Shown: positions 10,472-50,217, numbered from the stretch's first letter. The stretch is DNA of 64,000 nucleotides from Deltaproteobacteria bacterium (GCA_016208165.1 JACQYL010000053.1:21447-85446); one strand, 5' to 3'. Program-made: numbers and translations. The notes: generated from the sequence alone by a model not told the origin.

Positions 10472-10485
10472 TAGGAACTCTCGCC

Positions 10486-11955
10486 ATGGCCTTCAAATCC
10501 CATTTTATCCGCAATCAATGGATCGAGGGTAAGGGAAACGATTTTGTGTCCACAGACCCCGCTACGGGCGAGACCGTTTGGCAAGGACGCATGGCAACAG
10601 AGGACGAAGTCCATCAGGCGGTCATGGCCGCCCGATCCGCTTACGAACACTGGGCGTCGGGCGATCTGTCGGCCCGAATCCGCGTTCTTGAAGCCTTTCG
10701 GGACAGGCTGGTCGAACATCGGCAAACCCTGGCTGAGACGATATCCATGGAGACCGGAAAACCGCTGTGGGAATCGCTGTTGGAAGTAGCCGCCATGGCG
10801 GCCAAGGTGGACATCTCCAGGGATGCCTACGAAGAGCGGCGGAGTCCCATTGTCCAGGAACGGGGGGGCGTCCAGACCGCAGTCCGTTTCAAACCCCACG
10901 GCGCATTCGGCGTCGTGGGTCCATTTAACATGCCGGGCCATCTGCCCAATGGTCATATTGTGCCCGCGCTTCTGGCCGGCAATACGGTGGTGTTCAAACC
11001 CAGCCGCAAGACGCCTGGGACGGCGCAAAAGACACTCGAACTTTGGGAAGCCTCCGGAATCCCGGCCGGCGTGATCAACCTCGTTCAGGGAGATCATTCC
11101 TCGGTTCATGCCATCGTCCGTCATCCCGACATACACGGCCTTGCGTTCACCGGCAGCTACGCAGCGGGAAAAGCGCTTCATCAGGCGTCCGCGGAACACC
11201 CGGAACGCATTCTCGCGCTCGAGATGGGCGGGAACAACCCCTTGGTGGTGCACGAAGTGTCCAATCCCATGGCGGCGGCGTACATGACTGTCCAATCCGC
11301 TTTTATCACTTCAGGCCAGCGCTGTAGTTGCGCCCGAAGACTGATAGTCACCTCGGGATCTCGCGGCGATGAGTTCGTAGACACTCTTCGAGGGATGATC
11401 CAACGGATCCGCGTTGGCCCGTGGACGGATCTACCGGAACCTTTCATGGGTCCCGTCATCTCCGCAGCCGCGGCAAAGGAGCTCTTGAAGGCGCAGGACG
11501 ACTTGGCCGAGCGGGGTGGGCGTCCTCTTGAAACCATGGGGCTCAAGAGCGATACCAGCGCTATGCTCACTCCCGGCCTGATGGACGTCACATCGGTCAA
11601 GGATCGCGCCGACACGGAAACCTTCGGACCATTTCTCCAACTGATCCGGGTTCCGGATTTCGATGCGGCCCTCGTGGAAGCGAATCGAACGGCCTACGGG
11701 CTTTCGGCGGGTATTCTGACGGATGAACCGGCGCTCTATAGACGCTTTTTCAACGAGGTCCGCGCCGGAGTGATTAACTGGAACCGGCCCATCACCGGCG
11801 CCAGTTCCTATCTGCCCTTCGGCGGAGTCGGCATCAGCGGCAACCACCGTCCGAGCGGCTATTACGCAGCGGACTATTGCGCCTATCCCGTCGCCTCTCT
11901 CGAGTCGTCTTCCCTTGCCCTTCCCGAGCAGCCGACGCCGGGGATTACCTTATGA
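10486..11955 (+). CDS. astD: N-succinylglutamate 5-semialdehyde dehydrogenase (aldehyde dehydrogenase family)
   Basis: Strong similarity to E. coli AstD ([79 protein letters not shown].ASLES). ATG at 10486 chosen ([15 protein letters not shown]). The ORF-finder TTG start at 10468 overlaps the astA stop. Confidence 0.9.
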   Translation: [489 protein letters not shown]

Positions 11956-13313
11956 CGCCCGGTGTGTTCGAAGTCAATTTCGACGGAATCGTGGGGCCAA
12001 CCCACAATTACGCCGGGTTATCGCACGGTAATCTGGCGTCGGAACGCCATAAATGGAACGTGTCCAATCCACGCGAGGCGTTTACCCAGGGGCTCCGTAA
12101 AATGAAGCTTCTGGCGGATATGGGATTGAAACAGGCCGTACTGCCCCCCCACGAAAGGCCGGACATAGAGACGCTGAGGCGACTGGGGTTTCACGGGACT
12201 GAGGCCGATATGATCGCCGAGGCGAAACGCAAGGACCCGGTTCTTTTGGCCTCCTGCTACAGCGCCTCGAGCATGTGGACCGCCAACGCGGCCACGGTTT
12301 CTCCTTCATCGGACACCTCCGATGGACGCGTACATTTCACTCCCGCCAATCTGGTAACCCAATTCCATCGCTCCCTGGAGACGGACGCCACCGCATTGGT
12401 GTTACGAAAGATTTTCTTCGACAATGCCGTGTTTGAGCACCATCCTCCCCTGCCGGCGACTCTACATTTCAGCGATGAAGGCGCCGCCAACCATACGCGC
12501 CTTTGCGATGCGCTTCATCATCCCGGCATCGAGATCTTTGTCTACGGGAAGGAAGCCTTCGATCCAACCTTGCAGGGGCCGGCGATTTACCCCGCCAGGC
12601 AGACATACGAGGCGTCCCTGGCCATATCTCGCCTTCATCTTCTGGACCCGAACGCTGTTTTTTTTCTTCGGCAAGGCCCTGCGCTCATTGACGCAGGCGT
12701 ATTCCATAACGACGTCATAGCCGTAGGGCATCGAGACACCCTTGTTTATCATGAGAGCGCCTTTTGCCGAGGCAGGAACACTCTCGAACAGATTCGATCC
12801 GTTTTTAACAAGCGATACGGACAAGACCTCCATTGCATCGAAGTGCCGTTGTCGGCGCTCTCCGTCGAAGAGGCCGTACAGACGTACCTGTTCAACAGCC
12901 AGTTGGTAACGCTGCCCAATGGTTTCCTGTGCCTGATCGCGCCTGTCGAGTGTCGGGAGAATCCCAAAACAGAGGCGATATTGAAAGAAGTGGTTCGTTC
13001 GGAGAATCCCATCGAGAGTATCCGATACGTCAACCTGCGCCAAAGCATGCGAAACGGAGGCGGTCCCGCCTGCCTCCGGCTCCGGGTTCCGCTAACCCTT
13101 GATGAAACTACCCGAGTCCATCAGGCCGTCTTCCTGACGGATGTGCTCTACAAAACACTGGAAGTCTGGGGCCAAACATATTATAGAGATACCCTGCACG
13201 CGGATGACCTGTCCGATCCAAAACTGGCGGAAGAAAGCCGCGCTGCATTGGACGCGTTGACGGAAATATTGAAACTGGGATCGATTTACCGCTTTCAGAG
13301 GGCGGGAGCCTGA
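11952..13313 (+). CDS. astB: N-succinylarginine dihydrolase
   Basis: MTPGVFEVNFDGIVGPTHNYAGLSHGNLAS...GVFHNDVIAV...MRNGGGPACLRLRV matches AstB along its entire length. The ATGA-type overlap with the astD stop suggests translational coupling. Confidence 0.9.
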   Translation: MTPGVFEVNFDGIVGPTHNYAGLSHGNLASERHKWNVSNPREAFTQGLRKMKLLADMGLKQAVLPPHERPDIETLRRLGFHGTEADMIAEAKRKDPVLLASCYSASSMWTANAATVSPSSDTSDGRVHFTPANLVTQFHRSLETDATALVLRKIFFDNAVFEHHPPLPATLHFSDEGAANHTRLCDALHHPGIEIFVYGKEAFDPTLQGPAIYPARQTYEASLAISRLHLLDPNAVFFLRQGPALIDAGVFHNDVIAVGHRDTLVYHESAFCRGRNTLEQIRSVFNKRYGQDLHCIEVPLSALSVEEAVQTYLFNSQLVTLPNGFLCLIAPVECRENPKTEAILKEVVRSENPIESIRYVNLRQSMRNGGGPACLRLRVPLTLDETTRVHQAVFLTDVLYKTLEVWGQTYYRDTLHADDLSDPKLAEESRAALDALTEILKLGSIYRFQRAGA

Positions 13314-20096: not shown

Positions 20097-22394
20097 TCAA
20101 CGAAAGCTGTGACAACTGCAGCAATCAAGCCTTTCAGTATGTCCCGCCGGTTGCGCAGTGATCGGACCCGGGCCGCACAGATCTACCTGCGACCCGTCGC
20201 CCCCGCTCAGGTCCGGAGCGAAGGGCACGAACTCGAAGTTGGCGCCCTGATCCGCCATGTGGATTTTTGGATCCACACCGTCGTGACAGGAAGAGCACGC
20301 GGAAGCGGTTGGAGTGATGTTAATATCGTCGTTGGGACTCGCCGCGTCGTTCCCTACTTCGATGGTCGTAGGCAACACGTTGTCGCCGATGGCCGGCAAT
20401 TCAAAGCTTCCATCGATATGACAGGCCTCGCAATCGTTTAACGGCCGGGGATAGCGAACTTCGCTGTAGTCGTTGGGGCTACCGCCAAATCCGTACACCA
20501 CGATGCCTTCGGTCCTGAAACCGTCGGCGGAGGAGGCGCCGGCATGGATGGCATGGATCAAGTATTTGAAATCAATGGTTTCCTGTGTCTTACCGTCGGC
20601 CGTTGTCGCTGAGCCACCCGGGCGCCGGCCGATATCCGTGGCATCCGGGTTATGGCAGATTACGCACAGCTGAGTTTCGTCGTTCCGGTTTGCTCCGTGC
20701 AAGCTCAACAAACCGTGGCACTGATCGCAGTTGGCGATGTCCACAACCTCCCGACGCGCCTGTGGCGTAGCGTCCGTGACGGCAAAAAAATTCACCACGC
20801 CTTTGACCGGCACCCGTACATCGAACACGCCGGGTTCGGATTCCACCGCAGGATGCCCCTCGATGGCCACAACCCCCGATCCGGTCACAGCCGCAGGAAT
20901 GGCCACTCCGGATGTCACTGTAAACGTGCCGTCGCCGTTGTCCACCGCGCTTGTAATCGGATTGATCGAGATGGGCTGAGCCGGGGTGCTGGTGCTGCCC
21001 GTGTTCGTATAATCTTCGGAATTCCAGCCGATGAGGATCGCCAATCGGCTGGCGCCTCCGGGAGCATTGAATTCCGGATCGACGAGAATATCGTAGGGCG
21101 CGTCACCGTTGGTGGGATCCGTAACCGAGAATGTGATCACCGGAAACTGTCCGGGCCCCGTGTTCTGGACGTCCAATATGTTGTATTCGAACCTGGCTGC
21201 GGCGGCCTGTTCCGGAATCACGTGAGTATCCGTGATGCCCGCCGCGCCTCCGGACGCCGGATGACAGTTGACGCAGCTGCGGTTGTCGGGTTGGGCGCCC
21301 CCGGCATGGTTTTCACCGGTCACCAAGTTGACGTCGTCGTGACACGACGTGCATGCGGCAATGGTGGGAACGTTCATCCAGTTGTCACCATCCGGCGTAT
21401 CGGAGTCCGAGCCGTCGTGACATTTGGTGCAGTTGCGCCGATCCTGAGGAAAGACCACGTTGGAGTAGTCGTTTACCGAATCCCCAAAACCATATATCAC
21501 ATATTCACCGCCGGCCTGCACACTGGGCAGGTCCTCACCCGAGTGGATCTTGTGGATCATTACCTTGAAATCAACGGTGTTGCCGCTGTTGGCGTCCGTA
21601 CTGCCCGGATTGTGGCAGGTTACGCAATACTTGACAGCGATCCTATCCCCGCCGTGAAATCCCAGCTTCCGGTGGCACTCGTCGCAGTTCGCGTTCCTCA
21701 CGATCGAGCGAGTGGTTATCGGCGTGCTGCCATCGGGCACGAATTCGAATATGGCGTTATCCGTGTTCTCCGTAGTCTGCATGGCCACGCGATGCGTCAG
21801 GGCGGGATTATACGCGACGGCTACGGGAGACGTTACGTTTTGGATATCGAACGAGAAGGTATAGCTGTAGCTGCCGTCCTGATTGTCCACAAACACGCCC
21901 CCCTGCGTACTCGTCCTTTCCGACGAAGCTTGAACCTGGTCCGTGGTCCCCGGCCCTACATCAGGGGTTTCAATCACATTGATGTAACTCTGCCAGAAAC
22001 TCGCATTGCCGTTTGCAGCGGGATTCAGCTGCGCCAGAGTGAAGCGGATGTTCGAAGGGGCCACAAACGCGAGCGGCTGGCCCGCGTTGAACAGCCTGAA
22101 ATTTATGGTCGTGGCGCCGCCAACGATCGTCACTGCGTCTATGACCCCGGTTATAGTCGTCTCCGGAGTGCTGTGCTGCGCGGCCACGTCTACGATCCGG
22201 CCCGGATCGTGGCACAGCATGCATTCTTCGTTGAATGTCTGCTCCACGAGAGGGGGCGCCTGATCTCCGGTACCGCCGCTCTCGCTGCCGCACCCTGCCA
22301 GAAGTAGAACGTAACCGATCGCAAGGCACAAGACCAAGCTGTTAAACAATCCTTTTCTCATGACACCATCTCCTTCCACTCTGAGGTCCGTCAC
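20097..22394 (-). CDS. Large multiheme c-type cytochrome lipoprotein (11 CxxCH motifs), candidate outer-surface terminal reductase
   Basis: CxxCH motifs: CMLCH, CDECH, CVTCH, CTKCH, CTSCH, CVNCH, CDQCH, CVICH, CEACH, CSSCH, CCSCH. Signal peptide with lipobox LLAGC (alternative start at M12 near 22361). Thr/Gly/Asn-rich, beta-rich composition between hemes. Confidence 0.9.
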   Translation of the reverse strand: MTDLRVEGDGVMRKGLFNSLVLCLAIGYVLLLAGCGSESGGTGDQAPPLVEQTFNEECMLCHDPGRIVDVAAQHSTPETTITGVIDAVTIVGGATTINFRLFNAGQPLAFVAPSNIRFTLAQLNPAANGNASFWQSYINVIETPDVGPGTTDQVQASSERTSTQGGVFVDNQDGSYSYTFSFDIQNVTSPVAVAYNPALTHRVAMQTTENTDNAIFEFVPDGSTPITTRSIVRNANCDECHRKLGFHGGDRIAVKYCVTCHNPGSTDANSGNTVDFKVMIHKIHSGEDLPSVQAGGEYVIYGFGDSVNDYSNVVFPQDRRNCTKCHDGSDSDTPDGDNWMNVPTIAACTSCHDDVNLVTGENHAGGAQPDNRSCVNCHPASGGAAGITDTHVIPEQAAAARFEYNILDVQNTGPGQFPVITFSVTDPTNGDAPYDILVDPEFNAPGGASRLAILIGWNSEDYTNTGSTSTPAQPISINPITSAVDNGDGTFTVTSGVAIPAAVTGSGVVAIEGHPAVESEPGVFDVRVPVKGVVNFFAVTDATPQARREVVDIANCDQCHGLLSLHGANRNDETQLCVICHNPDATDIGRRPGGSATTADGKTQETIDFKYLIHAIHAGASSADGFRTEGIVVYGFGGSPNDYSEVRYPRPLNDCEACHIDGSFELPAIGDNVLPTTIEVGNDAASPNDDINITPTASACSSCHDGVDPKIHMADQGANFEFVPFAPDLSGGDGSQVDLCGPGPITAQPAGHTERLDCCSCHSFR

Positions 22395-22403
22395 AAACTT
22401 ATG

Positions 22404-23000
22404 TTATCCCTTGTCGTGAAGGTAGAACTCCTCGTACAAGACGATCGCCTTCTTTACTGCGAATGTCGCCGCACGGGATGATATGGTCGCCCCGGCGATC
22501 CCGGTAATGTCTTTACCGACCGTTAGAACGGAACCGCTGGTCTTACCTTGGTACTGATCCATGAAACTACGTCTCGCGATGGGACGTCCCCTTTTTTCCT
22601 GATAGCTCATCACGAGCACTCTCTGGACGGCGCCCCTCAGATCCATTGCGATCATGAACTCGACAGGGCCCCATTTTCCGGGTTGGTCATCAATAACGGC
22701 CACCCCTATTTTTTTTCCGTCCTTTTCAGCAAAGTAGAAATCGATCTTCTTGCTTGCAACCACGGCTGCGGACTCTGAACCTTCCTGGAGAAATTCGAGG
22801 CTTCCTCCCAACCGTTCCGTCACGCGTTGCTCAACCTCGCCTTTCAACCTTTCCGTCTGTTTGATGATCTTGGTGCCCGCACCAAAAACCTCGAGCAGGG
22901 CCTCTTTGAGCGTCAACAAGGTGAACGCGTGGCCGAGAACAACAGAAGCGGCGAAAACGGCCACTGCGCTTACTACAACAAGAGCTTTCTGCTTTGTCAT
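22404..23000 (-). CDS. Membrane-anchored FMN-binding domain protein (FMN_bind; RnfG/NqrC/PplA-like flavinylation substrate)
   Basis: N-terminal TM helix. C-terminal region DITGIAGATISSRAATFAVKKA contains the conserved D..(S/T)GAT(I/L)(S/T) motif whose Thr is the FMN attachment site in NqrC/RnfG. Start taken at MTKQK (23000), which is preceded by an AGGAGA RBS. Confidence 0.8.
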   Translation of the reverse strand: MTKQKALVVVSAVAVFAASVVLGHAFTLLTLKEALLEVFGAGTKIIKQTERLKGEVEQRVTERLGGSLEFLQEGSESAAVVASKKIDFYFAEKDGKKIGVAVIDDQPGKWGPVEFMIAMDLRGAVQRVLVMSYQEKRGRPIARRSFMDQYQGKTSGSVLTVGKDITGIAGATISSRAATFAVKKAIVLYEEFYLHDKG

Positions 23001-23013
23001 GTGGTGTCTCCTG

Positions 23014-24036
23014 CTATTCGATAGTGGAAATCGCCTGGAGGCGATCTTTGAGACCGGAAGAGTACAAGACTTCACCGGATTCGGTGACCATGATCACCTC
23101 CATGCCGGGAATGCTCTCAACGATCTCGAGACCTTTCTCGGGCCCCAAAACGAACAACGCCGTATTCCAAGCGTCTGCGAGAGCCGGGTCCCCGTACAGG
23201 ATCGTAGTGCCCGTGAGTCCTGAAGCGGGATACCCTGTCTTCGGGTTAAAGATGTGGTGATAGCGCTTACCCTGGTCCATGAAGAATCGCTCGTAATCCC
23301 CCGATCCCATGATCGAGAGGTCCTCCGCCTCTATGAATCCGAGAAGGCCGTCGCCCCGTGGGTCTTTGATTCCCACCTTCCAGGACCGGAGTCCCTTTTT
23401 CCCCATGGCGTATACGTCTCCCCCGGCATCGATCAAGGCTGAGGTCACTCCTTCAGCCCGCAACACTTTTATCGCCTCACCCACCGCGTATCCTTTTGCA
23501 ATGCCGCCTAAGTCGATCCGAATATCGGGCCTAGTCTTTTCCACCTTCGAGTTCCGGACGACCAGATGTTTGTAGCCGATCTTTTCGATGCATCGTTCGA
23601 TGCTTTCGTGATCGGGGACGGAGGGATGGTCTCCATAAAACCCCCATAGCGATATGAGCGGACAGATCGTGATATCAAAGGCGCCGTCCGAATCGCGACT
23701 CACGCCTAAGGCTAATTTCACGAGATCCACGATCTCGCTGTCTGAAATGGGGGCGCCCTCATTGTTGAATGCATACAGGGGGCTTTTAGGGTTCAGGAAA
23801 TCAAACTTCTCATCGACTTCTTCCATCCGCTGCAAGGCCGCGTTCACGGCCTTGGATGTCAATTTCTCGGGGCCGACGGCATAGACGGTTACGTAGGTAT
23901 CCATCATCACGCGCGTCTGCTTTTCCAGATGGAATCGATAGGAGTTGTAGGTTCTCACGCTAAAAAAGACAGCGAACAGCACTCCGACAACTATGAATAT
24001 GACTTTCGCCGTCTTAGACAGGCTATTTTGCTTCAA
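23014..24036 (-). CDS. apbE: FAD:protein FMN transferase (ApbE family), membrane-anchored
   Basis: N-terminal TM helix, then the typical ApbE layout (MDTYVTVYA...GVSRDSDGAFDITI.PLI..WGF...IDLGGIAKGYAV...GD.Y..G). 340 aa. Confidence 0.85.
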   Translation of the reverse strand: MKQNSLSKTAKVIFIVVGVLFAVFFSVRTYNSYRFHLEKQTRVMMDTYVTVYAVGPEKLTSKAVNAALQRMEEVDEKFDFLNPKSPLYAFNNEGAPISDSEIVDLVKLALGVSRDSDGAFDITICPLISLWGFYGDHPSVPDHESIERCIEKIGYKHLVVRNSKVEKTRPDIRIDLGGIAKGYAVGEAIKVLRAEGVTSALIDAGGDVYAMGKKGLRSWKVGIKDPRGDGLLGFIEAEDLSIMGSGDYERFFMDQGKRYHHIFNPKTGYPASGLTGTTILYGDPALADAWNTALFVLGPEKGLEIVESIPGMEVIMVTESGEVLYSSGLKDRLQAISTIE

Positions 24037-24153: not shown

Positions 24154-25425
24154 TTAAAAGGTCGTCCTCCATCCCAACGTCCATCGGATGTACTTGAGCG
24201 TTTCCGAACCATCAGACCGATCGGCATCCACGAGTTCGATCTGTGGTATGATCGTCGAGTTACTGGTAATCCAGTAGTTCAAAGCCATGGACAATGTCTT
24301 ATAATTATCCGTAACGGCGCTCGTTGAAGGGAAGAAGAGATCTACATCGCTATACTTGGCCAACACCCGCCATTCGGGATTGAAAGTGTACATGGCCCGG
24401 ACGTAATATCCTTCGTTCACCGCATCCGCCGTTCCCCCGCCGATCAGCGGGGAATCTTCCTGTTCTCTTCGCAGGTATTCGCCGAGAAGGCTGATGCCCT
24501 TGTATCGCAAGTCCGCACCACCGAGCCATTGCCACGAGTTGTTATCATCGTCGTTATCCCACCTGCCCCATCCCAAGGAGCCCAGAATCCGTATGCTTAC
24601 GTCCATCAAGGAGAATTCGGGCGCTACATGCAGCAACAGATTCTTGGTGCCGTTGTTGTCCACGTAACGGCTCTCTTCATTGTCCCCGTTCAGATATGGA
24701 TAGAAATACACGGGCAATGAGAAATTCTCGAAATCGAAGTTGCGGTACAGCTCCACCCCCAGCGATCGCCAGGACTCCAAAAAGAGCAAGCCATTGTTCC
24801 CGTGATACTGCTCATGCCACCAAGTCTGTCTGGCGTATTCCTCGCTGAACATCGGGTAGAAGGCGCCCACCCGCGCTTCCAGTTCCCAGGGAAGCCTGAC
24901 CGTCATGTATGCCTCGTCAAGGTCCACATCCACGGAAGCCGAGCCCGCTCGGGTGATGTCTCCGCCGAGCCCGGGGGTGGCGGCGGCCAACACTTCGATC
25001 TTGGGAGCAACATCGAGACTCAGCCACTCGTTGAGCACTTTGCTGAAATAGAGATATACGTCACTGATGCCGGCGGAAAGATTGTTGTTCTGGCTCACAT
25101 CGTTGCGCTCACCGTCCGTCCGATCCAGCATGAAGAACTTGAAATGTCCCCCAATGTTGACCCCCTTCCGCACCTCCTCCATGATTTTTGAAGGCATCTG
25201 CGACAGTTCGTCAACACTGTCCTCGAGCTCGGGAATGGCTGCAATCTCTTCCTTCTGGGATTTCTGCTCCTCCTCGAGTTGTTCCACCCGCTCTTTCATC
25301 GTATCCATTGCCTTTTGCATCTGCTGGATCTGCTCTTTAAGATCGGCAATTTCGTCCGACATCGACCGAGCAGGCGCCAACAAAACACAAACAATGACAA
25401 CCACCAATGCAATTCGCAGCTTCAT
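24154..25425 (-). CDS. Putative outer-membrane beta-barrel (porin-like) protein with an N-terminal coiled-coil segment
   Basis: Cleavable signal peptide, about 60-aa heptad-rich Glu/Gln/Lys segment, then alternating aromatic/hydrophilic beta-strand pattern rich in Tyr/Trp/Asn/Gly. C-terminal ...LGWRTTF ends in Phe as in OMP beta-signals. Confidence 0.5.
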   Translation of the reverse strand: MKLRIALVVVIVCVLLAPARSMSDEIADLKEQIQQMQKAMDTMKERVEQLEEEQKSQKEEIAAIPELEDSVDELSQMPSKIMEEVRKGVNIGGHFKFFMLDRTDGERNDVSQNNNLSAGISDVYLYFSKVLNEWLSLDVAPKIEVLAAATPGLGGDITRAGSASVDVDLDEAYMTVRLPWELEARVGAFYPMFSEEYARQTWWHEQYHGNNGLLFLESWRSLGVELYRNFDFENFSLPVYFYPYLNGDNEESRYVDNNGTKNLLLHVAPEFSLMDVSIRILGSLGWGRWDNDDDNNSWQWLGGADLRYKGISLLGEYLRREQEDSPLIGGGTADAVNEGYYVRAMYTFNPEWRVLAKYSDVDLFFPSTSAVTDNYKTLSMALNYWITSNSTIIPQIELVDADRSDGSETLKYIRWTLGWRTTF

Positions 25426-25443: not shown

Positions 25444-26292
25444 TTACCTAATAATGGTCCGGATCATTCTATTGACGGACAGGCCGAGTGACTTCCGGAA
25501 CCTCCGGGCGCCACCCACCCTCTCTACGTTTCCCTCCTTTTTATCCGTTCTCGTTTCACTCGGGGGTTCCATCCCTGGCCGGAGAAGCATAGCTACCAAG
25601 TGATTCTCGTGCTGTTGAGCAACCCTCCGATGAGTAGAAAGATCCCGCACAGTTTCCAGATCGGCGCTGCCTTCGAACATCGTCCGATCCATGGGGAAGT
25701 TCTGCCTGCGAAGATGAGCAACGGTGAAATGGATGATAAACACGTGCCCCATGGCCAGCATGCCCTCGATACGATGCACCCAAAGGGCTATGTTCAAGCC
25801 CCATCCCGGTATGATGCGCGTCGAAATCAGAGGGAAAGCCAGGATCAAGCCCGTTGTGCCCATGACCATCATGCCCCAGAATACCGCTCCCAGGTAATCC
25901 ACCTTTTCCCAATATCCCCAGCGGTCAAGACGTGGATGAGATCCTTTGCCGAGAAACCAGGCCACATGCTGGAAAAAATCCTTCACATCATGAGGTTGGG
26001 GAAACATGGAATCCGGGCCCATGAGGGATGACGGAAAAGTACGCCAGCGAATCCGGAAGGCCAGGTACACGAGATGGAGCAGAAAGGCCAGAATCATGAA
26101 AAGTCCCACGTACTTGTGAACCACGAGGGCCGACTCGTAGCCGCCGAACACGCGGGCAAGCCCTTTTCCCCAAGCCGTTTGGATATACATGCGCGCAAGT
26201 CCGGACGCGCCCTGCGTCAAGAACGTGATGATCAGCACCACATGTGAAATGCGTTCTACGGTGTTAAACCGTTTAAGTCTGATCTTCTCCAT
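25444..26292 (-). CDS. Membrane b-type cytochrome (Ni/Fe-hydrogenase b-type cytochrome subunit / cytochrome b561 family; candidate quinol oxidase)
   Basis: RFNTVERISHVVLIITF at the N-terminus is characteristic of the PF01292 family. Four hydrophobic helices with conserved His. Start taken at MEKIRLKRF. Overlaps the upstream gene stop by about 20 nt. Confidence 0.7.
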   Translation of the reverse strand: MEKIRLKRFNTVERISHVVLIITFLTQGASGLARMYIQTAWGKGLARVFGGYESALVVHKYVGLFMILAFLLHLVYLAFRIRWRTFPSSLMGPDSMFPQPHDVKDFFQHVAWFLGKGSHPRLDRWGYWEKVDYLGAVFWGMMVMGTTGLILAFPLISTRIIPGWGLNIALWVHRIEGMLAMGHVFIIHFTVAHLRRQNFPMDRTMFEGSADLETVRDLSTHRRVAQQHENHLVAMLLRPGMEPPSETRTDKKEGNVERVGGARRFRKSLGLSVNRMIRTIIR

Positions 26293-26995
26293 CCGTTTGA
26301 TGACCCTCGTCGCTAGGTTTTCTCTTGAGCAACAACTCCCTGAGACTCCAAAGGAACGTATGAGGCAGAAACACCACAAAGATGCTCACCGACATCCCTA
26401 TCATGATCCAGAACGCATAAAACAGGATCGGGAAATCTTTTCTTGTGCTGAGAGACGCCGGATTTGGCGAATGAACGACGTAGCTGGCAAACGAGGCGTT
26501 GGCTCCTTCGTGACACTTGGAGCAGACGTAGGCATGCCTTCGTATGGGATTCATGGGTGAATAATAGTATTCGCCGCCGGAGATCGGCTCTCCACCATGG
26601 CACTGGCGACACGTCAGATTGGCCCGAACGGTGTGCAGGTCTCGGGTTTCTCTTGGATGGCAATCTTCGCAGGTTTGATACTCGTAGAACCTCAGCCCCA
26701 CATGGGAATCTTCGAGGCGGCTCCGAATTCCTATCCTGGCCGCAGCCGGAGTGTACGGCAGCAGTCCTCGCCTCAAACCCGGAATCGCAATCAACGGGGA
26801 TTCGCTGAAGGGTCTAGCCTCATATTCCTCGTAGTACCCGGTACTCGCTTCATAGTTCTTGTAGCGACGGATGGACGACGCCACTTCCTCCTGAGCATGG
26901 CACAAAGCAGGCCCCAGGAGCAGCGCCGCCGCCAGGCCTAAAAGCAGGGCTATCGATACTCTCCCTGCGGCTCGGTTTCTCATAAGGAATCGCAT
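26273..26995 (-). CDS. Triheme c-type cytochrome with N-terminal signal/anchor and C-terminal transmembrane helix
   Basis: CEDCH, CRQCH and CSKCH motifs. Hydrophobic C-terminus FPILFYAFWIMIGMSVSIFVVFL followed by a charged tail. Confidence 0.8.
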   Translation of the reverse strand: MRFLMRNRAAGRVSIALLLGLAAALLLGPALCHAQEEVASSIRRYKNYEASTGYYEEYEARPFSESPLIAIPGLRRGLLPYTPAAARIGIRSRLEDSHVGLRFYEYQTCEDCHPRETRDLHTVRANLTCRQCHGGEPISGGEYYYSPMNPIRRHAYVCSKCHEGANASFASYVVHSPNPASLSTRKDFPILFYAFWIMIGMSVSIFVVFLPHTFLWSLRELLLKRKPSDEGHQTDGEDQT

Positions 26996-27193: not shown

Positions 27194-28525
27194 TTACTTG
27201 AGTTCAAACGTTTCCGCGCCTTCCTCCTTAAGCTGTATTTCCGGATCTTTTCCTTCCCCTTCCGGGGAGCCGGCCGATTCCGATTCGCCTCCGCCAAAGC
27301 CTCCAAAAGCATCTCGCTGCAACTTCTTCAAGTCGGCGCCCTTATGCTTGTGGCACGTCTCGCAGGAATTAGGAATGTTGGGATTCTTGATCGTGTCGAT
27401 GGGCAACAGGGTGACGAACACATGGCTGTGTAGATCCCCGGATTCCGCGTTTTTCGCGATCCTCGGCATATGACATCCTACGCAATTTGCAAAAGTGTGG
27501 ATGGCGTGCGCCTTAACCCTGTTGACCAACTGATGGCACTGGAAGCACTGCTGCGAACCGGCGGCGGACGTTTGGGACTTGGTTGGAGGCAGACCGATCT
27601 GGTGTACAAAGTGGCAGGAGGTACAGGTAACGCCTTCCACGTAATGAGCCGATTTCAGCCAATCGTTGTATTGCTGATGATGCCCCTTGGAGAACTCATT
27701 CATGTAGAAGTTTCCCGTGTCGCCCTCAGCATACGAAGTGGCGTTGTAATAGGCGGCAAGGGCTTCTCCCGGCTGGTAATCGACGGGCCAATGAACGCCT
27801 TCGGCTACCGTGGACATGCCGCGCTCGTGACACGAACCACAGATCTGAACCCTCGCTCCCGTGGACAATTTGGCCGGATTTACAATTGTTTTACGCTTTT
27901 CGAACACGGCTGTTTTCGGTAAGGCGACATGCCAGGAACCTTTCCCATGACACGCCTCGCACCCTATGCTCAACTCGCTGAACCTGTTGTTTTTCAGATC
28001 CACACCGGTGGCGTGGCAACCACCGCAATACTGGAGCCAGGGTTTTTGATCCCAGTCACCTTCGCGATAAGTCACCCATCGATGAGTGTCCATATTGTAT
28101 TGAATGGGAGCGATGTAAAGAGCGCCGTTTTTTTCAACGATGAAACGCTGCTGCCATTGCCCCCCAATGGCGTATTTGATCTCGTCAAGTTTGGGGATAT
28201 AGATCTGATCCGTCGATGGCTTGGCTGCATCTTCCGATTGGGTGAAGCTCTCCCGAATCTTGGCCTCACTATAAGGGACCATAATGGCGCTGGCGTCCTT
28301 TTGCACATCCAGGGTGCTGCGGCTGTGAGAGGTCATCTTCCAGGAATCGTAATGCTGCAGGTGGCACATCTTGCATCGATCCGATCCGGCGTACGTTTTT
28401 GGAGCTGCTGTGATTTCTTCAATATCTACAGGCGCTTCCGGACTACATGCGGCTAAAACAAGGAGTGTCAGACAGACTGCGATAAGCTTCGAACGGCTTC
28501 CCATGACCATGTTCCCCTCCTCCAT
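27194..28525 (-). CDS. Octaheme c-type cytochrome lipoprotein (periplasmic)
   Basis: Eight CxxCH motifs (CKMCH, CGGCH, CEACH, CGSCH, CTSCH, CFQCH, CVGCH, CETCH). Signal peptide with lipobox LAAC. Confidence 0.9.
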   Translation of the reverse strand: MEEGNMVMGSRSKLIAVCLTLLVLAACSPEAPVDIEEITAAPKTYAGSDRCKMCHLQHYDSWKMTSHSRSTLDVQKDASAIMVPYSEAKIRESFTQSEDAAKPSTDQIYIPKLDEIKYAIGGQWQQRFIVEKNGALYIAPIQYNMDTHRWVTYREGDWDQKPWLQYCGGCHATGVDLKNNRFSELSIGCEACHGKGSWHVALPKTAVFEKRKTIVNPAKLSTGARVQICGSCHERGMSTVAEGVHWPVDYQPGEALAAYYNATSYAEGDTGNFYMNEFSKGHHQQYNDWLKSAHYVEGVTCTSCHFVHQIGLPPTKSQTSAAGSQQCFQCHQLVNRVKAHAIHTFANCVGCHMPRIAKNAESGDLHSHVFVTLLPIDTIKNPNIPNSCETCHKHKGADLKKLQRDAFGGFGGGESESAGSPEGEGKDPEIQLKEEGAETFELK

Positions 28526-28607: not shown

Positions 28608-29879
28608 TCACATGAAAGGAGCTTTTTCTTTCACTGAAGATCCGAGGTTCTCATCGATCGTTTCGACACGCGCAAGGTCCCACAGACGGCTCGTACCGTC
28701 CGCCATGACATAGAGAGTCGCCACCCAATTACTGATCCACTCAACGAGATGACTAATTCTTTTCTTCTTTTCCAGCCTTGCTCCACGAATGCTGGTCCGC
28801 GCCGTTTCCCACAGGTACGGTATGGCTTCCCAGGAAAGCGTGAGTTTCGCCGCCACACTCTTTGACGAAATCCCGAAAAATCGCAGGAACGACAGTAAAC
28901 CGGTCAGTCCGTTGGCCAAGTCCGCCAGCGACGTGGTCATGGTTAACAGGAAACTCAGAAGCATCAGATAGAAAAGGCGAAATGCAAACTGAAACCCGTA
29001 GGTAACCCCTTCAATGGTCATCGTCAAATACGGTATCTCGAATATCGGACGGCCTTCCCCCTGAAGCAGAGCCGGGATCAGAAAAGATGTCAGAAGCAGC
29101 CATCGATACCTTCTTGATCTCCCCAGTAGCTGGGACACCGGAATTCTCGATAGCAACATCGAAGCCAGGAGAAGTCCGGAAAGGCTGAGCATTAACCAGA
29201 GGTTGGCGCTGATCAGAAGAATGAGCGACAAAATCCCACATCCGGCAATCTTTGCCTTGCTTGACAACTGATGGATACAAGAGTCCCGATGCACATAATG
29301 TCGAGATTCCGGCCTGGGCATCCCCTCCGATACCGTCAGAGCGGCTTCGGTCATCGTCCCGATGTGTTCCAACCGTATGCACACGGAGCGTGCAATCGCT
29401 CCGGTAACCCAGCCCATGAGCACGCCTCCGATGCAAAGCCAAGGCAGGAACACAAAAACACCTTCGTGTTTGATTAGTATGAGGTAGGCGAGGACCAGTT
29501 GGGTCAGATTATGGCAAAGGGCGCCCAAAATACTGATCCCGATCAAGCTGAAACGATAGTGACTGCTCGAACCGGAGACCCAGAAAAGGAAGCCCATGGC
29601 GCAGGTGCTGAGAAAGGCCCCGGAAATGCTCAGTACGAAAGGAGGGGACAGGAACGTGCCCATGAGGAAGGAACTGAGAATGGCCCGCAACAAAGCGACT
29701 TCCAGGGCTGCTTTAAAACCCAGGGTCACCAGGGCTACCAAAGTAATCATGTTGGCCAGCCCCAGCCTGAGACCGGGTATGGGGTGGGGCACAATCGATT
29801 CCGCTATTTGAAGCACACAAGAGAGGGAAACGAAAAGCGCTATTTTTTGCATTCGATCGGCTGACAAGGATGCTTCCAT
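28608..29879 (-). CDS. Fusion membrane protein: N-terminal Gx-transporter domain (formerly 'heptaprenyl diphosphate synthase component I', Hpt_synth_I) plus C-terminal ECF-transporter T-component (EcfT/CbiQ)-like domain
   Basis: Residues about 10-175 match the Gx transporter family (IAESIVPHPIPGLRLGLANMITLVALV...ISILGALCHNLTQL). Residues about 200-420 match EcfT/CbiQ (LTMTIEGVTYGFQFAFRLFYLMLLSFLLTMTTSLADLANGLTGLL..L.FFGIS...A.KLTLSW..IPYL.E.A). Confidence 0.65.
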   Translation of the reverse strand: MEASLSADRMQKIALFVSLSCVLQIAESIVPHPIPGLRLGLANMITLVALVTLGFKAALEVALLRAILSSFLMGTFLSPPFVLSISGAFLSTCAMGFLFWVSGSSSHYRFSLIGISILGALCHNLTQLVLAYLILIKHEGVFVFLPWLCIGGVLMGWVTGAIARSVCIRLEHIGTMTEAALTVSEGMPRPESRHYVHRDSCIHQLSSKAKIAGCGILSLILLISANLWLMLSLSGLLLASMLLSRIPVSQLLGRSRRYRWLLLTSFLIPALLQGEGRPIFEIPYLTMTIEGVTYGFQFAFRLFYLMLLSFLLTMTTSLADLANGLTGLLSFLRFFGISSKSVAAKLTLSWEAIPYLWETARTSIRGARLEKKKRISHLVEWISNWVATLYVMADGTSRLWDLARVETIDENLGSSVKEKAPFM

Positions 29880-29900: not shown

Positions 29901-30308
29901 TCAGCGAACCACGGCATCCACTAGCGGCGCTTTAGTGGATTGAACTTCGATCAGAATCCTGTTTGGGACACAAACGATAACCTCTCCCGGTACCTGTATC
30001 CAACCCGTACGAACGCAAATCTGTTTGCGGCAATTCGATCGCGCCACTCTGACTTTGCCCTCGTTTACTTCGATGTCCATCTCCTTGGAGGGAAGCGTGA
30101 ATACGTTGTTTTTCGACAGGTTCAACTCGGCCACCAGAAGGCCGTCCTTGAAAACGACGGCCGAGGTAGCTCGCCGGCTCTGACGGCCGGAGTCGTGTCC
30201 CATCCAGAGGATGCTTCCGGCGGAAAGGACGACAATCAGAAAGATCGAAAGCTTTTCGAGTCGAGTCATCCTGCGCGCATAGACTTGCCCCTGGCCTTCG
30301 TCCATCAT
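29901..30308 (-). CDS. NusG domain II-containing small membrane protein (NusG_II, DUF1312-like)
   Basis: About 120-135 aa. N-terminal TM helix then a beta-rich domain with spaced Cys (CRKQICVRTGWIQVPGEVIVCVPNRILIEV). The size, topology and pairing with a Gx-transporter gene 21 nt downstream are typical of this family. Alternative start at MTRLEK (30269). Confidence 0.6.
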   Translation of the reverse strand: MMDEGQGQVYARRMTRLEKLSIFLIVVLSAGSILWMGHDSGRQSRRATSAVVFKDGLLVAELNLSKNNVFTLPSKEMDIEVNEGKVRVARSNCRKQICVRTGWIQVPGEVIVCVPNRILIEVQSTKAPLVDAVVR

Positions 30309-30419
30309 TCATGGAGACTTTCTTGATGGAGAGCGCGTCCACAATTCACACGTATGGGAACCCTCAAGAGATATTTCAAGTCCCGAATCCCACTTTGCAG
30401 CACACAACGAGCGGCATTC

Positions 30420-30620
30420 ATTCCGATCGGGGTTGGACTAGAGACTCACGCGGCAGATAGGCGTTTTCTTCGTTGTGCGCCAAGCCACATATCGACTTTT
30501 TATTTTCTATACGAAATATAGTACAGGAGTCAACACCGATCTTAACTTTTTGTTTTACTATTGATTTCAACCGCCGGCGTCTTTAGCTGAAACTATATCG
30601 AAATCATCTACTTTGATCAC
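30420..30620. promoter_or_regulatory. AT-rich segment inside a 950-bp divergent intergenic region (likely promoter region of the minus-strand cytochrome/flavin operon)
   Basis: Marked local drop in GC (TTTTTATTTTCTATACGAAATATAGTAC...) in an otherwise high-GC sequence, directly upstream (minus-strand sense) of the first gene of the operon. Confidence 0.25.
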
Positions 30621-31262
30621 AAAACAGACGCCGGATGACAGTTGGAAATCCGTTTCCCGGTCAAATGATTCTCAGCAAATCGATCTCTCTGTCAAAGACG
30701 CAGCTGTAGAAGAGAAACCGCCCTTAAGAGCACATCATAACACTGGGAACTGCTTAAGATTGAACTTCCTGGGTTTTTTACACGAATCGGCGTTCATACT
30801 CATGTATGGCCGCATCGAGCTACGATCCCGACGCTGACTTCATGTGCAAGGGCTTCTTTCGATCACGGTCTTTTTAGAGGCGGGACTCGATCACGCACCA
30901 TGCGTTCGTGATTCGATCTGTTTTGCTCAGGCTGCGATACCTCTATAAAAAAGAGGGCTCTATGCCCTTACGAAGCAATTATACGATAACAGGAGAGCCG
31001 CAGGCCTGTCAAGAAATCGCCACGAAATTGCAGCGAACTCCGCACCGGGAATTGGCCTGTAATCGCGCACGGCCATCATGACTTCGGGATCACGCGGACG
31101 GTATAGCCCGAACAAGAACGATTTCTCAATTGCCTTTTCACGAAAAGGCGACTACTTTTTTGATGGTAATCCTGTTGAACAACATCGGCGAACTGTCACG
31201 ACCGAAATCATCCTGCCGCGGGAATACGATCCGTATACCCCCGAGTAATTAGGAGGACCACC

Positions 31263-32228
31263 ATGTTCAAGACTAGAGTCACCGAGATGTTGGGCATCAA
31301 ATATCCGATTATCGGTGGAACCATGATGTGGCTCAGCACTCCGGAATATGTTGCCGCCGTGTCCAGGGCCGGGGGGCTGGGCATTCTTGCTTCCGCCATG
31401 TACCAGAGCAAGAACGAACTGGCCGTCGCCATAGATCGGGTGCGCGAACTGACGGAAAAGCCTTTTGCCGTCAACCTTAATCTCTTTCCCGCCATGCGCG
31501 CGATAGACAACGGCGAGTACCTGGATGTGCTGCTCGAGAAAGATGTCAAGGTCGTGGAAACTTCAGGGCATTCCGCACCTGACGACTTGTGCGCGCGCTT
31601 CAAGAAGGCCGGAATGACCTGGATACATAAATGTGTCGGTGTCCGCTACGCCCTAAAGGTCCAGGACATGGGCGCGGACATTGTTACGGTGGTAGGCTAT
31701 GAAAACGGCGGCGCCACGGGCAAGCTCGATATTGGCGCCCTGGTTCTGGTGCCCAGCGTAGTCGACGCCTTGAGCATTCCCGTTATCGGTGGCGGCGGGG
31801 TTTCCGACGGCCGGGGTTTCCTGGCGGTGCTGGCTCTGGGAGCGGAAGGCGTCATCATAGGAACCCGGCTCCTGGCCACACGGGAAGCCCCCCTGCATGA
31901 TGCATTGAAGCAGTCCCTCGTCGGCGCGAGCGAGCTTGACACCATACTTGTCATGCGCTCGATCAACGCCACTCACAGAGTCTGGAACAATGCCGCGGCG
32001 CAAAAATGTCTAGAAATTGAAGCCCGGGGCGGAACGTTGAACGAAATCCTGGCAATCGCCACCGGGGCGAATGCAAAACGAATGTACGACAGCGGGGATC
32101 TTAACGCAGGCATCATGGCTTGCGGCCAGGGCGTGGGACTGGCGCATGATATCCCCACCATACGGGAGCTGTTGGACCGCATCGTGTCGGAAGCGGCCGG
32201 CTTGGCGAAAAAACTCGCTTCCAACTAG
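31263..32228 (+). CDS. Nitronate monooxygenase / FabK-like FMN-dependent oxidoreductase (NPD family)
   Basis: MFKTRVTEMLGIKYPIIGGTMMWLSTPEYVAAVSRAGGLGILA is the typical NMO/FabK N-terminus. Strong RBS AGGAGGA 7 nt upstream. Confidence 0.85.
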   Translation: MFKTRVTEMLGIKYPIIGGTMMWLSTPEYVAAVSRAGGLGILASAMYQSKNELAVAIDRVRELTEKPFAVNLNLFPAMRAIDNGEYLDVLLEKDVKVVETSGHSAPDDLCARFKKAGMTWIHKCVGVRYALKVQDMGADIVTVVGYENGGATGKLDIGALVLVPSVVDALSIPVIGGGGVSDGRGFLAVLALGAEGVIIGTRLLATREAPLHDALKQSLVGASELDTILVMRSINATHRVWNNAAAQKCLEIEARGGTLNEILAIATGANAKRMYDSGDLNAGIMACGQGVGLAHDIPTIRELLDRIVSEAAGLAKKLASN

Positions 32229-35288: not shown

Positions 35289-35753
35289 ATGATTGAATTC
35301 AAGCTAAATGGAAACATCGTCCGATTGGAGGTTTCTCCGGACATGCCTTTGTTATGGGTGCTCCGGGACATCCTTGGACTGACCGGAACCAAGTACGGTT
35401 GCGGAGAGGGCTTATGCGGGGCCTGCAACGTTCTTCTTAACGACAAGGCTGTTCATTCCTGCGTCACGCCGGTTTCCAGGGTTCAGGGCATGAATGTCAC
35501 CACCATCGAGGGTTTGGCGGCGGTCGAGAACCATCCGGTGTTATCGGCCTGGATCGAGGAGGAGGCGCCGGAGTGCGGGTATTGCCAGCCCGGACAGATT
35601 ATCTCGGCCACGGCCCTTTTGGCTGAAAACCACAGCCCCACGGATTCGGATATCGACGAAGCCATGTCTCAGAACCTCTGTCGATGCGGAACATATCGCC
35701 GAATCCGTCGCGCCATCCATCGTGCGCGGGCGCGCATGAATAAGGAGCGGTGA
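35289..35753 (+). CDS. (2Fe-2S)-binding small subunit of a molybdenum hydroxylase (CoxS/IorA-like)
   Basis: [11 protein letters not shown] and CGYCQPGQI...CRCGTY cluster motifs. Confidence 0.9.
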
Positions 35754-35760
35754 TCCGGCG

Positions 35761-47297: not shown

Positions 47298-48391
47298 ACA
47301 TCACCGTCGGTCTGATAACCCGCAATCGGGCGCGCCCGCTCTAGAACTGCCTCGAAAGTCTATCGAGACAGCAGCTACTCCCGGAAGAAGTGATTGTCGT
47401 GGACAATGGGTCCGGCGACTCAACCGCCGATGTGGCGCGTTCCTTCGCCCGGAAGCTTCCGCTGCGTCTCTTCTCCGAAGCACGGCCCGGTATTCCCCGG
47501 TGTCGTAATCGTTGTCTGCGGGAAGCCCGAAACCGGGTATTGGCCTTCACGGACGATGATTGCAAGGTTCCTCCGGACTGGATCCAGAGGATCGCAACCT
47601 ATCACGAGGCCTATCCGGGCGCTGCGGCCATCGGAGGCCCGGTAGTGAACGGCGCCCCGGGCCTTCTGGGTGAGACCAATCAACGGATGTGGGAAAGCTG
47701 GTTATGCGCCTATCGGGAGGCGCCAAAATCCGGAACGTCGGATATCCGTTTTCGGACACCGGCCAGGATTCCACATGTCTTGAAAAGGCCCGCTCAAGTG
47801 CGGAGTCTGTTCACAGCCAACTGCTCGTATAAAGTGGTTTCGATCAGGCGCATCGGCGGTTTCAATGAATCACTGCTGACCATGTCGGACGAAGAATTGA
47901 ACTGGCGCCTCTGCAACTCCGGAGAACGGTTACTGTACATACCGGACATGCCCGTAGTTCATGCCCACCGTGGCGCTATTGCGTCCTTTATCGAGCAGCA
48001 TTTCCGGTACGGCATCGGGTTTTACCAGACGCGCACGCTGCATCCCGGTATGCCGGGTATTCTGCCTCGATCCACACTCGTTTCGGTATGGATGTTTCCA
48101 ATCCTCGCTCTGACACAAGCCTTGTTCAACGCAGGCGTCGCAAGGCTTTCGTGCAAAACGCTTCCCCTGGCGGTTTTGATGTGGATCGCAGAAACGGCGT
48201 TCCGTACCGGAGCCCTCTATGCCGGTACGGGGCATCGGAGGGCGGTCTTTTTACCGGCGCCCCAACCCGCTCCATCGAGGACGAGTGCGCCGTCCGCCCA
48301 CTCCCACTCGATGGCGGCCTCTCCCAAAGGCGACACAGAGAAGACACTGTCCTGTATCGCGCCGGGTCCCACTTCGAGAGGCAAGCTGTAA
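47294..48391 (+). pseudogene. GT2-family glycosyltransferase with an in-frame TAG (47342-47344) in the conserved N-terminal strand
   Basis: Same reading frame gives LNITVGLITRNRARPL-[TAG]-NCLESLSRQQLLPEEVIVVDNGSGDST, i.e. the canonical GT2 start (I.V.IPTYNRA..L..CLESL..Q.....E.IVVDNGS.D.T) with an amber codon replacing one residue. The ORF finder only reports the part after the stop (GTG at 47390). Confidence 0.6.
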
Positions 48392-50214: not shown

Positions 50215-50217
50215 ATC

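Follow-up and report, generated by a model that had tools for sequence, protein, structure and literature searches.

Flavin transferase and its predicted substrate and flavin supply

The window analysed here, i.e., the whole stretch of 64,000 nucleotides from a Deltaproteobacteria bacterium, carries at 22404–24036 two minus-strand genes, apbE upstream and an FMN_bind gene downstream, which encode a flavin adenine dinucleotide (FAD):protein flavin mononucleotide (FMN) transferase and a secreted flavoprotein predicted to be its substrate. As the preliminary description of this DNA had stated, the pair lies between a porin gene (24154–25425, upstream) and the gene of a multiheme cytochrome, here an OmcA/MtrC-family lipoprotein with 11 CXXCH motifs (20097–22361, downstream; hereafter the MtrC-like protein). 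It belongs to a cluster of nine genes, all on the minus strand, that runs from 30308 to 20097 with intergenic gaps of at most 198 bp and encodes, in order, an EetA-like protein, an EetB-EcfT fusion, an octaheme cytochrome, a triheme cytochrome, a b-type cytochrome, the porin, ApbE, the FMN_bind flavoprotein and the MtrC-like protein. The same nine genes were found on three metagenomic contigs.

The apbE gene (23014–24036) starts at a TTG behind AGGAGG and encodes 340 residues with a full-length ApbE domain (PF02424, E = 2.7e-81, profile positions 1–265 of 266). Its product matches 13 solved ApbE-family chains at E ≤ 1e-10, e.g., TM1553 of Thermotoga (1vrm, E = 4.6e-52) and FmnB of Listeria monocytogenes (7esa, E = 1.4e-40). 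The stretches DLGGIAKGY, SGDYERF, YHHIFNPKTGYP and ADAWNTA have identical or similar counterparts at the aligned places of these two proteins, and the conserved FAD/Mg2+-site stretches GGIAKG, SGxYER, HHI(L/F)(D/N)PxTG and (A/T)DAxxTA, which we take to form the active site, are all present. Residues 9–27 are hydrophobic, with neither a lipobox nor an AXA site, and the transferase is probably anchored in the membrane by an N-terminal signal-anchor.

The FMN_bind gene (22404–23000) begins at the ATG at 23000, behind AGGAGA and 13 bp downstream of the end of apbE, and encodes 198 residues, the same length as a 100% identical database protein (P0001); the GTG start at 23075 proposed by the ORF finder (22404–23075) was rejected as an over-extension overlapping apbE. 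The FMN_bind domain is recognised at 40.2 bits against a cut-off of 22 (PF04205, E = 5.3e-10), and the AlphaFold model, with a predicted local distance difference test score (pLDDT) of 82, has significant Foldseek matches in the PDB to RnfG and NqrC chains only. Close to the C-terminus stands the motif D164-ITGIAGAT172-ISS (22476–22511, minus strand; Thr172 codon at 22487–22485), which HMMER aligns onto the stretch ITGATITS of RnfG in the Rnf structure of C. tetanomorphum (7zc6_G), the flavinylation site of that protein. The preliminary description had equated this motif with the NqrC/RnfG site and had named beforehand a lack of conservation of its Thr among orthologs as a refuting outcome. 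The residues G-A-T, including Thr172, are retained in 120/120 close homologs. Among 1.8 billion cluster representatives, searched index-free with HMMER, about 145 untruncated matches were recovered, all but one of which keep the Thr. Position −3 is Ser or Thr in most sequences, SGAT being the majority form; the AGAT of the window, with Ala, is found in 6/120 close homologs and about 8/150 representatives and recurs in the nearest relatives. Altogether, Thr172 is predicted to carry a covalent FMN attached by ApbE.

Some relatives of the flavoprotein show other architectures. FMN_bind and ApbE can occur in one chain, as seen among the fusions P0374, P0367, P0384, P0247, P0259 and L050:4742-5896; in P0384 a DtxR/FeoA iron-regulator module is joined to FMN_bind, possibly through a merged gene call, while further relatives carry an unannotated C-terminal extension of about 200 residues.

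The two proteins seem to differ in how they reside in the periplasm. Of 101 flavoprotein homologs, 90 have Ala and 8 have Gly at the position preceding the predicted cleavage site (−1), 97 have C, S, G or A at position −3, and position −2 is bulky; the hydrophobic h-region is variable, the site is followed by a conserved FTLLT and the median presequence has 25 residues. The same pattern recurs in the versions of Omnitrophota, Firestonebacteria and other groups. This is most likely a signal peptidase I site, with cleavage predicted after Ala25, and because of the conserved pattern the flavoprotein, once matured, is probably a soluble periplasmic protein. The earlier proposal of single N-terminal transmembrane anchors in both proteins thus probably holds for ApbE, which has no cleavage site, but not for the flavoprotein, with its small-x-Ala | FTLLT cleavage pattern. 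In contrast, the proposal of a periplasm-facing ApbE with a flavinylatable substrate is supported.

The likeness to RnfG and NqrC comprises the fold, the dependence on ApbE and the placing of the flavinylated Thr, which directly precedes the C-terminal helix. One alternative is that the flavoprotein is an orphan RnfG/NqrC paralog that serves, along with ApbE, an Rnf or Nqr complex encoded elsewhere, the adjacency to cytochromes being coincidental. Besides the fact that the only relatives with solved structures are RnfG and NqrC, the Joint Genome Institute (JGI) annotation names many homologs RnfG, and some Omnitrophota loci have Rnf/Nqr-like genes at a distance of a few kb on the upstream side. 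However, these loci appear to hold an RnfG-like gene of their own in addition, the scores of the window protein fall far under the NCBIfam cut-offs (47.7 bits against 205 for NF045876, 43 against 102 for TIGR01947, 26 against 230 for NF041840 and 21.4 against 178 for NF002519), and a predicted cleavable signal peptide replaces the anchor that RnfG and NqrC retain. Moreover, the conserved neighbours are the porin, EetA/EetB and cytochromes, with a porin/EetA/EetB synteny in 31/39 loci (see below). No rnf or nqr genes were found among the scanned window ORFs (open reading frames) of at least 150 residues. Membership of Rnf or Nqr was therefore rejected on the cut-offs and the missing partner genes, in agreement with the preliminary description, and an orphan paralog working for a distant complex appears very improbable.

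Genes for flavin supply open the cluster. The first one (29901–30308) encodes an EetA-like, single-pass protein with one N-terminal hydrophobic segment and a NusG_II domain (PF07009, E = 2.2e-24), a family to which Data Set S1 of Rivera-Lugo 2023 (PMC9973259) gives the name EetA. The second (28608–29879) encodes a fusion of 423 residues, in which an EetB part (PF07456, E = 1.5e-39, residues 16–164), i.e., an S-type, FAD-binding component of energy-coupling factor (ECF) transporters, precedes a CbiQ/FmnA-like T part (PF02361, E = 4.1e-14, residues 200–362). Such EetB-ECF-T fusions have already been described, and in Listeria, EetB (PF07456) binds FAD and is needed, together with the ECF-T protein FmnA, for flavin export to the ApbE-type FmnB (PMC9973259). 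By analogy, the window fusion is predicted to be an FAD exporter supplying ApbE. With PF07009, PF07456 + PF02361, PF02424 and PF04205 all within 8 kb on one strand, the roles reported for EetB and FmnA and the naming of EetA imply that the window encodes a complete, if predicted, flavinylation supply line beside the substrate.

Gene order across related loci

To place the cluster in a wider context, one genome per GTDB species was scanned, which yielded 64 loci, and these loci were searched with the nine window proteins; gene order was counted in the 39 loci having at least 7 kb upstream and at least 3 kb downstream of the FMN_bind gene. The five genes EetA, EetB-EcfT, porin, ApbE and FMN_bind form a core that is kept in the same order in 31/39 of these loci, and EetA itself is present in 31/39. 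The core is accompanied by the MtrC-like gene in 18 loci (with the octaheme gene in 17 and the cytochrome b/triheme c pair in 16), by a small protein of about 155 residues with four transmembrane segments (4-TM protein) in 9, and by neither in 4, while 8 further loci combine FMN_bind and the 4-TM protein in the absence of the full core. The MtrC-like and 4-TM genes, found in 18 and 17 loci, respectively, never occur together. Conversely, all five flavin genes are present in 18/18 well-flanked loci having the MtrC-like gene.

Every one of the 18 loci that have the MtrC-like gene is labelled as Desulfobacterales-type or as unclassified delta-/Thermodesulfobacteriota. Across the cytochrome-bearing loci, the block porin–ApbE–FMN_bind–MtrC-like is constant, whereas the position of the trio made of the octaheme, triheme and b-type cytochromes varies: in L001–L003 it precedes EetA, in the window, L004 and L009 it separates EetB from the porin, and in L017 it follows FMN_bind. 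Flavin and cytochrome genes have thus stayed together through rearrangements, an argument for a functional connection.

Elsewhere, the flavin core is found in the same order, with no cytochromes in the locus, in metagenome-assembled genomes (MAGs) whose labels point to about ten phyla. The labels of the MAGs with cytochrome-free loci are Omnitrophota, Elusimicrobia, Cloacimonadota, KSB1, WOR-3, Planctomycetota, Latescibacterota, Chitinivibrionales, Armatimonadota and Firestonebacteria. In each of the cytochrome-free loci that have it, the 4-TM gene adjoins the FMN_bind or the porin gene (L022:10612-11067, L026:10674-11144, L035:7029-7487, L038:6282-6749, L042:10547-11038 and 20 more loci carry the family). 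The 4-TM protein has no Pfam, NCBIfam or PDB match; its alignment features one invariant His in a (T/D)-H-x-H stretch, from which heme binding by a dimer is conceivable, if unsupported. Several cytochrome-free loci (L023:4071-5991, L024:2614-4556, L038:8221-8988) also contain genes for a UbiA-type prenyltransferase, a polyprenyl synthase and an FAD synthetase. By analogy, the first two suggest the roles of DmkA and DmkB in the Listeria locus, as would be expected for a locus of flavin/quinone electron transfer.

Finally, a minimal triad made of a porin-like protein, an FMN_bind protein of about 172 residues with SGAT kept and the 4-TM protein is found in Ignavibacteria (L058) and in aerobic Flavobacteriia (L062, L064, L067), with no adjacent apbE in L067:8418-10776, L064:8658-10896 and L058:4331-6480. 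Its carriers include the cultured Lutibacter agarilyticus DSM 29150 and Lutimonas halocynthiae CECT 8444, which opens part of the module to experiment.

Porin, cytochromes and surroundings

The porin gene (24154–25425) was identified by a profile match and by the AlphaFold model of its product (pLDDT 79.5), a barrel of 16 strands. The best structural matches are the phosphate channel OprP of Pseudomonas aeruginosa and the anion-selective, coiled-coil-bearing DcaP of Acinetobacter baumannii, at 13–16% identity and with a gene context unrelated to that of the window porin. A coiled-coil-like N-terminal helix (residues 25–61) is modelled on the periplasmic side with low confidence, and a helix-containing loop lies between strands 5 and 6, where classical porins have loop L3. 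The loop sequence FSEEYA..WWHEQYHGNNG is strongly conserved, its aromatic/acidic pattern being kept across phyla; it was considered as a flavin-stacking site, but no conclusion was drawn, since constriction loops are usual in porins. From the model, the barrel looks like a diffusion channel rather than an MtrB-type sheath for a heme wire.

Porins 40–47% identical to that of the window and with the same conserved loop sequence occur in the Omnitrophota loci L012, L013 and L022–L024, and in the latter three none of the ORFs of at least 110 residues has a CXXCH motif. More generally, the porin accompanies ApbE and FMN_bind in Omnitrophota, Elusimicrobia, KSB1, WOR-3, Firestonebacteria, Planctomycetota and others, with no CXXCH among the inspected ORFs. 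Because the same porin is found in cytochrome-free loci, the barrel belongs with the flavin genes: it is inherited with them and not with the cytochromes.

This distribution bears on the interpretation given in the preliminary description, according to which an anchored flavoprotein would be a structural or electron-carrying subunit of a porin-cytochrome complex spanning the outer membrane, or would shuttle electrons to it. In gene composition, the cluster indeed resembles the Pcc clusters of Geobacter, which combine an octaheme periplasmic cytochrome, a porin-like protein of about 440 residues and a multiheme lipoprotein, and the constancy of the porin–ApbE–FMN_bind–MtrC-like block in cytochrome-bearing loci points in the same direction. 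On the other hand, a 16-strand barrel with an internal helical loop is far closer to OprP and DcaP than to MtrB, its close relatives stand in Omnitrophota loci, three of them devoid of CXXCH-containing ORFs of at least 110 residues, the flavoprotein has a conserved signal-peptidase site, and the octaheme protein is OcwA/NrfA-like, not MtrA-like. What survives of the proposal is the tie of the flavoprotein to the cytochromes (18/18 loci), while its connection to an outer-membrane complex through the porin is weakened by a porin that travels with the flavin genes. We thus consider an anchored subunit of such a complex to be quite improbable.

The three c-type cytochrome genes of the 64-kb window all lie inside the cluster. 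The octaheme lipoprotein (27194–28525; NrfA/c554-related) has eight CXXCH motifs, an N-terminal L-A-A-C lipobox and Pfam matches to Cytochrom_C552/C554, and it matches the PDB entry 6i5b (E = 1.2e-20), the structure of OcwA, which acts as a terminal reductase at the cell surface of Thermincola potens, a Gram-positive bacterium. The triheme cytochrome c (26273–26995) has three CXXCH motifs, weak matches to Cytochrome_C7/c3 and two hydrophobic segments, i.e., a signal peptide (residues 13–31) and a C-terminal transmembrane helix (residues 190–208). The end of its gene is overlapped by the start of the gene for the membrane b-type cytochrome (25444–26292; cytochrome b561/Ni_hydr_CYTB family, PF01292, E = 1.1e-11), which probably begins with the ATG at 26292, although the ORF as called mechanically reaches 26379; the two co-occur in 16 related loci.

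The MtrC-like protein (20097–22361, from the ATG at 22361; 754 residues) scores 552.7 bits against a cut-off of 209.3 for TIGR03507 (NCBIfam), features the Pfam domains OmcA-like_N and two Mtrc-MtrF_II-IV, and matches MtrF (E = 5.1e-44) and OmcA (E = 1.2e-39) in the PDB. It has a L-A-G-C lipobox, a Gly/Ser-rich N-terminus and 11 CXXCH motifs, the extra eleventh one standing near the N-terminus (residue ~47). In MtrC and OmcA of Shewanella, a CX8C disulfide in domain III controls the binding of free flavin; this motif is absent from the MtrC-like protein, in which the mature chain has, apart from those of the heme motifs and the lipobox, cysteines only towards the C-terminus, at about residues 729 and 747. 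That an OcwA-like octaheme gene and an MtrC-family gene share one cluster may be mentioned in its own right, as well as the second, more divergent (31–32% identical) OmcA/MtrC-family paralog that directly follows the first at L027:12881-15145 and L059:3212-4918.

While the closest relatives of the MtrC-like protein sit in the same type of cluster, those of the next tier, about 50% identical, belong to canonical mtrC-mtrA-mtrB clusters (L068–L071, e.g., L070:10001-15486), in which a CymA-type gene (Cytochrom_NNT) is present and ApbE and FMN_bind are absent. Neither an MtrA-type periplasmic decaheme cytochrome nor a large MtrB/PioB-type barrel is encoded in the window cluster, and no MtrA/MtrB was found in the cluster at any of the 18 flavin-type loci. 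Judging from these homologs in clusters that lack the flavin genes, it would appear that the window lineage either received its MtrC-like gene from a canonical mtrCAB system or passed it on to one.

The same observations lend themselves to a bolder reading, in which the secreted flavoprotein and a dedicated porin replace MtrA and MtrB. The flavoprotein would then reduce a small shuttle, either a diffusible flavin that originates from the FAD released through EetB-EcfT or some other compound, which would pass through the anion-type porin to the surface MtrC-family cytochrome, or act directly on acceptors in the cytochrome-free phyla. Several facts are in line with this: the contrast between the outgroup mtrCAB(-cymA) clusters devoid of ApbE/FMN_bind and the 18 flavin-type loci devoid of MtrA/MtrB in the cluster, the association of the porin with the flavin genes in MAGs of about ten phyla, the best matches of the porin to OprP and the anion-selective DcaP (FMN and FAD being anionic phosphates), and the lack of the domain III CX8C disulfide in the MtrC-like protein. 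In addition, MtrC/OmcA proteins are known to use bound flavins (e.g., PMC4699859 and PMC4092373). Nevertheless, the case is purely inferential: a likeness of fold at 16% identity gives no firm channel selectivity, MtrAB may be encoded elsewhere in the genome, the surface exposure of the MtrC-like lipoprotein is an assumption, and free flavin shuttling needs no covalently flavinylated protein. A shuttle passing through the porin in place of MtrA and MtrB is accordingly rather unlikely, and we can only tentatively suggest that flavoprotein and porin form a heme-independent electron route over the Gram-negative outer membrane that would here have replaced MtrAB as the feeder of an MtrC-family surface cytochrome and would, in the other phyla with the core, do without any cytochrome c.

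The surroundings of the cluster can be described briefly. Rfam returned zero matches across the whole window, hence no FMN riboswitch or other RNA family upstream of the cluster, including the ~950 bp (30309–31262) preceding EetA, which contain no ORF of at least 80 residues save a minus-strand one of 131 residues (31208–31603) just reaching in. Scans for sigma-70 promoters and terminators yielded about as many matches as expected from shuffled sequence and were left out of account. A sigma-54 activator gene (HAMP + Sigma54_activat + HTH_8), found upstream in L001–L003, was not found in the window, and genes for type II secretion or other export of the lipoprotein cytochromes were found in none of the scanned window ORFs. 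Elsewhere, the window encodes a nickel insertion protein (Pfam Ni_insertion, 99–1274, minus strand), presumably of the LarC type, enzymes of the arginine succinyltransferase pathway (AstA, an aldehyde dehydrogenase and AstB, 9443–13313, plus strand), a molybdopterin hydroxylase with its 2Fe-2S subunit (35289–38001, plus strand), an extensive region for polysaccharide biosynthesis that includes radical SAM/SPASM enzymes (44531–56000) and the small and large subunits of a [NiFe] hydrogenase (59641–62422, minus strand).

Proposed electron path, known systems and significance

With a probability of roughly 60%, we interpret the apbE/FMN_bind pair as the core of a Listeria-type flavin electron-transfer module in a periplasmic version, here coupled to cytochromes. 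By analogy with Listeria EetB/FmnA, EetB-EcfT, with EetA alongside and ECF ATPases encoded elsewhere, would export FAD over the inner membrane, and the anchored ApbE, whose motifs were described above, would move the FMN moiety of this FAD onto Thr172. The flavoprotein would shed its signal peptide to become a soluble, covalently flavinylated periplasmic carrier for one or two electrons. In the Desulfobacterales-like lineage, gene association would link this carrier to the quinol-oxidising cytochrome b and the membrane-anchored triheme cytochrome c, with the OcwA-like octaheme and the MtrC/OmcA-family undecaheme lipoproteins as terminal partners, while the porin would let small soluble redox partners (acceptors or shuttles) pass through the outer membrane, to or from the flavoprotein. 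A delivery of electrons from the flavoprotein to the MtrC-like protein is likewise something that we infer. In the other phyla, the five-gene core would function without cytochrome c, the 4-TM protein, a suspected inner-membrane module, taking the place of the cytochromes. Electrons might flow either way, i.e., outward to extracellular acceptors or inward in the case of uptake by a likely sulfate reducer.

Several points weigh against this interpretation. As regards the supply of flavin, neither an ECF ATPase gene nor the ATP-binding cassette signature LSGGQ is present in the 64-kb window, and the energising ECF subunits are therefore encoded elsewhere or dispensable; similarly, Ndh2, DmkA and DmkB of the Listeria locus were found in none of the scanned window ORFs. 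The AGAT of the window differs from the canonical [S/T]GAT, which bears on the efficiency of flavinylation. Gene association does not identify which cytochrome, if any, contacts the flavoprotein, and with a surface MtrC-like protein, the crossing of the outer membrane is unexplained unless there is a soluble carrier or MtrAB is encoded elsewhere. The structure models are those of monomers, and in that of the porin the N-terminus has low confidence. At the level of sampling, all close relatives retrieved are uncultured MAGs, and loci were partly retrieved with the pattern DI[TVI]G[IV]SGATI, so that motif conservation among them is circular, while the synteny counts are unaffected.

In a further alternative, the system would be a periplasmic reductase for an imported soluble oxidant (chelated Fe(III), a quinone or humic analogue, or an oxyanion), which the porin would admit and which the flavoprotein and periplasm-facing OcwA-like and MtrC-like lipoproteins would reduce, for respiration or for iron assimilation. 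The porin has the features of a classical substrate-diffusion channel, and OcwA-type cytochromes reportedly reduce soluble substrates besides minerals. The minimal triad of aerobic Flavobacteriia and Ignavibacteria and the DtxR/FeoA module fused to, or merged with, the homolog P0384 also fit such a role, as does the link of many flavinylated systems to iron reduction and assimilation made by Meheust 2021 (PMC8238504). Against it, the window cluster showed neither an iron transporter nor a TonB receptor nor a Fur box, and the characterised OmcA/MtrC-family proteins are surface-exposed reductases of minerals or shuttles. We therefore regard a reductase of imported oxidants as unlikely.

One of the closest known systems is the locus of Listeria monocytogenes (Ndh2, DmkA/B, EetA, EetB, FmnA, FmnB and PplA; Light 2018; PMC9973259), which shares EetA, EetB, an ECF T component, an ApbE-type transferase and an FMN_bind substrate, and in which, as predicted here, FAD is exported, a carrier is flavinylated outside the cytoplasm and electrons are moved outward. 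The window differs in its diderm host, in the fusion of EetB with the T component, in the lack of Ndh2, DmkA and DmkB, and in a core that includes a dedicated outer-membrane porin, to which four cytochrome genes are added, one of them of the MtrC family. Moreover, its substrate consists of one RnfG-like domain with a predicted cleavable signal peptide, whereas PplA is a two-domain lipoprotein.

On the cytochrome side, the MtrC-like protein is clearly an OmcA/MtrC-family lipoprotein, as in the MtrCAB/OmcA system of Shewanella, and is about 50% identical to MtrC proteins of mtrCAB clusters, but the window cluster is devoid of MtrA/MtrB, the heme motifs number 11 instead of 10, the CX8C motif is missing and the neighbouring genes encode a 16-strand porin, ApbE and a flavoprotein. 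Geobacter Pcc (OmaB-OmbB-OmcB) and OetABI of syntrophic sulfate reducers (Murali 2023, PMC10553843) likewise combine, in Desulfobacterota, a co-encoded periplasmic multiheme cytochrome, barrel and multiheme lipoprotein; the window barrel is instead diffusion-porin-like and common to cytochrome-free phyla, and its cytochromes are OcwA-like and MtrC-like, not OmaB/OmcB-like. The OetABI paper mentions neither ApbE nor FMN, and the term flavin refers there to other enzymes.

ApbE-dependent flavinylation of extracytosolic FMN_bind proteins is well established, and the surveys of Meheust 2021 (PMC8238504) and its 2024 follow-up (PMC10979944) catalogue many types of ApbE-flavinylated systems. They share with the window the idea that a b-type cytochrome in the membrane feeds an extracytosolic protein flavinylated by ApbE, but the partner is here a b561-type cytochrome (PF01292) with a triheme cytochrome c and, in other phyla, a 4-TM protein without Pfam match. 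Neither a porin nor an outer-membrane multiheme cytochrome is named as a cluster component in the portions of the two surveys that were considered. The nearest published case is Effluviviacota, a Gram-negative candidate phylum for which a 2024 paper reports flavin genes of the Listeria type (PMC11323493), and no paper describing ApbE/flavin genes associated with MtrC/OmcA cytochromes and a porin was found in the open-access literature. Within that literature, three features seem not to have been described before: the five-gene core with a porin among its members, the alternation of this core between the 4-TM protein and a set of cytochromes as partners, and its pairing with an MtrC-family cytochrome in the absence of MtrAB from the cluster. 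A core endowed with multiheme cytochromes but devoid of the usual outer-membrane wire suggests a route over the Gram-negative envelope that we did not find described.

Extracellular electron transfer in Gram-negative bacteria is known almost entirely as heme wires threaded through large barrels (MtrCAB, Pcc), and the flavin-based route has so far been viewed as chiefly Gram-positive. Many genomes of the Desulfobacterales type, all uncultured, encode an MtrC-family cytochrome whose cluster lacks MtrAB and which always stands beside a porin, a flavin transferase and a secreted flavoprotein. If this association is functional, it would correspond to a widespread module of envelope electron transfer, for which no description was found, and would provide both a testable answer to the question of how cytochrome-poor diderms exchange electrons with their surroundings and a compact flavin-based part for engineering.

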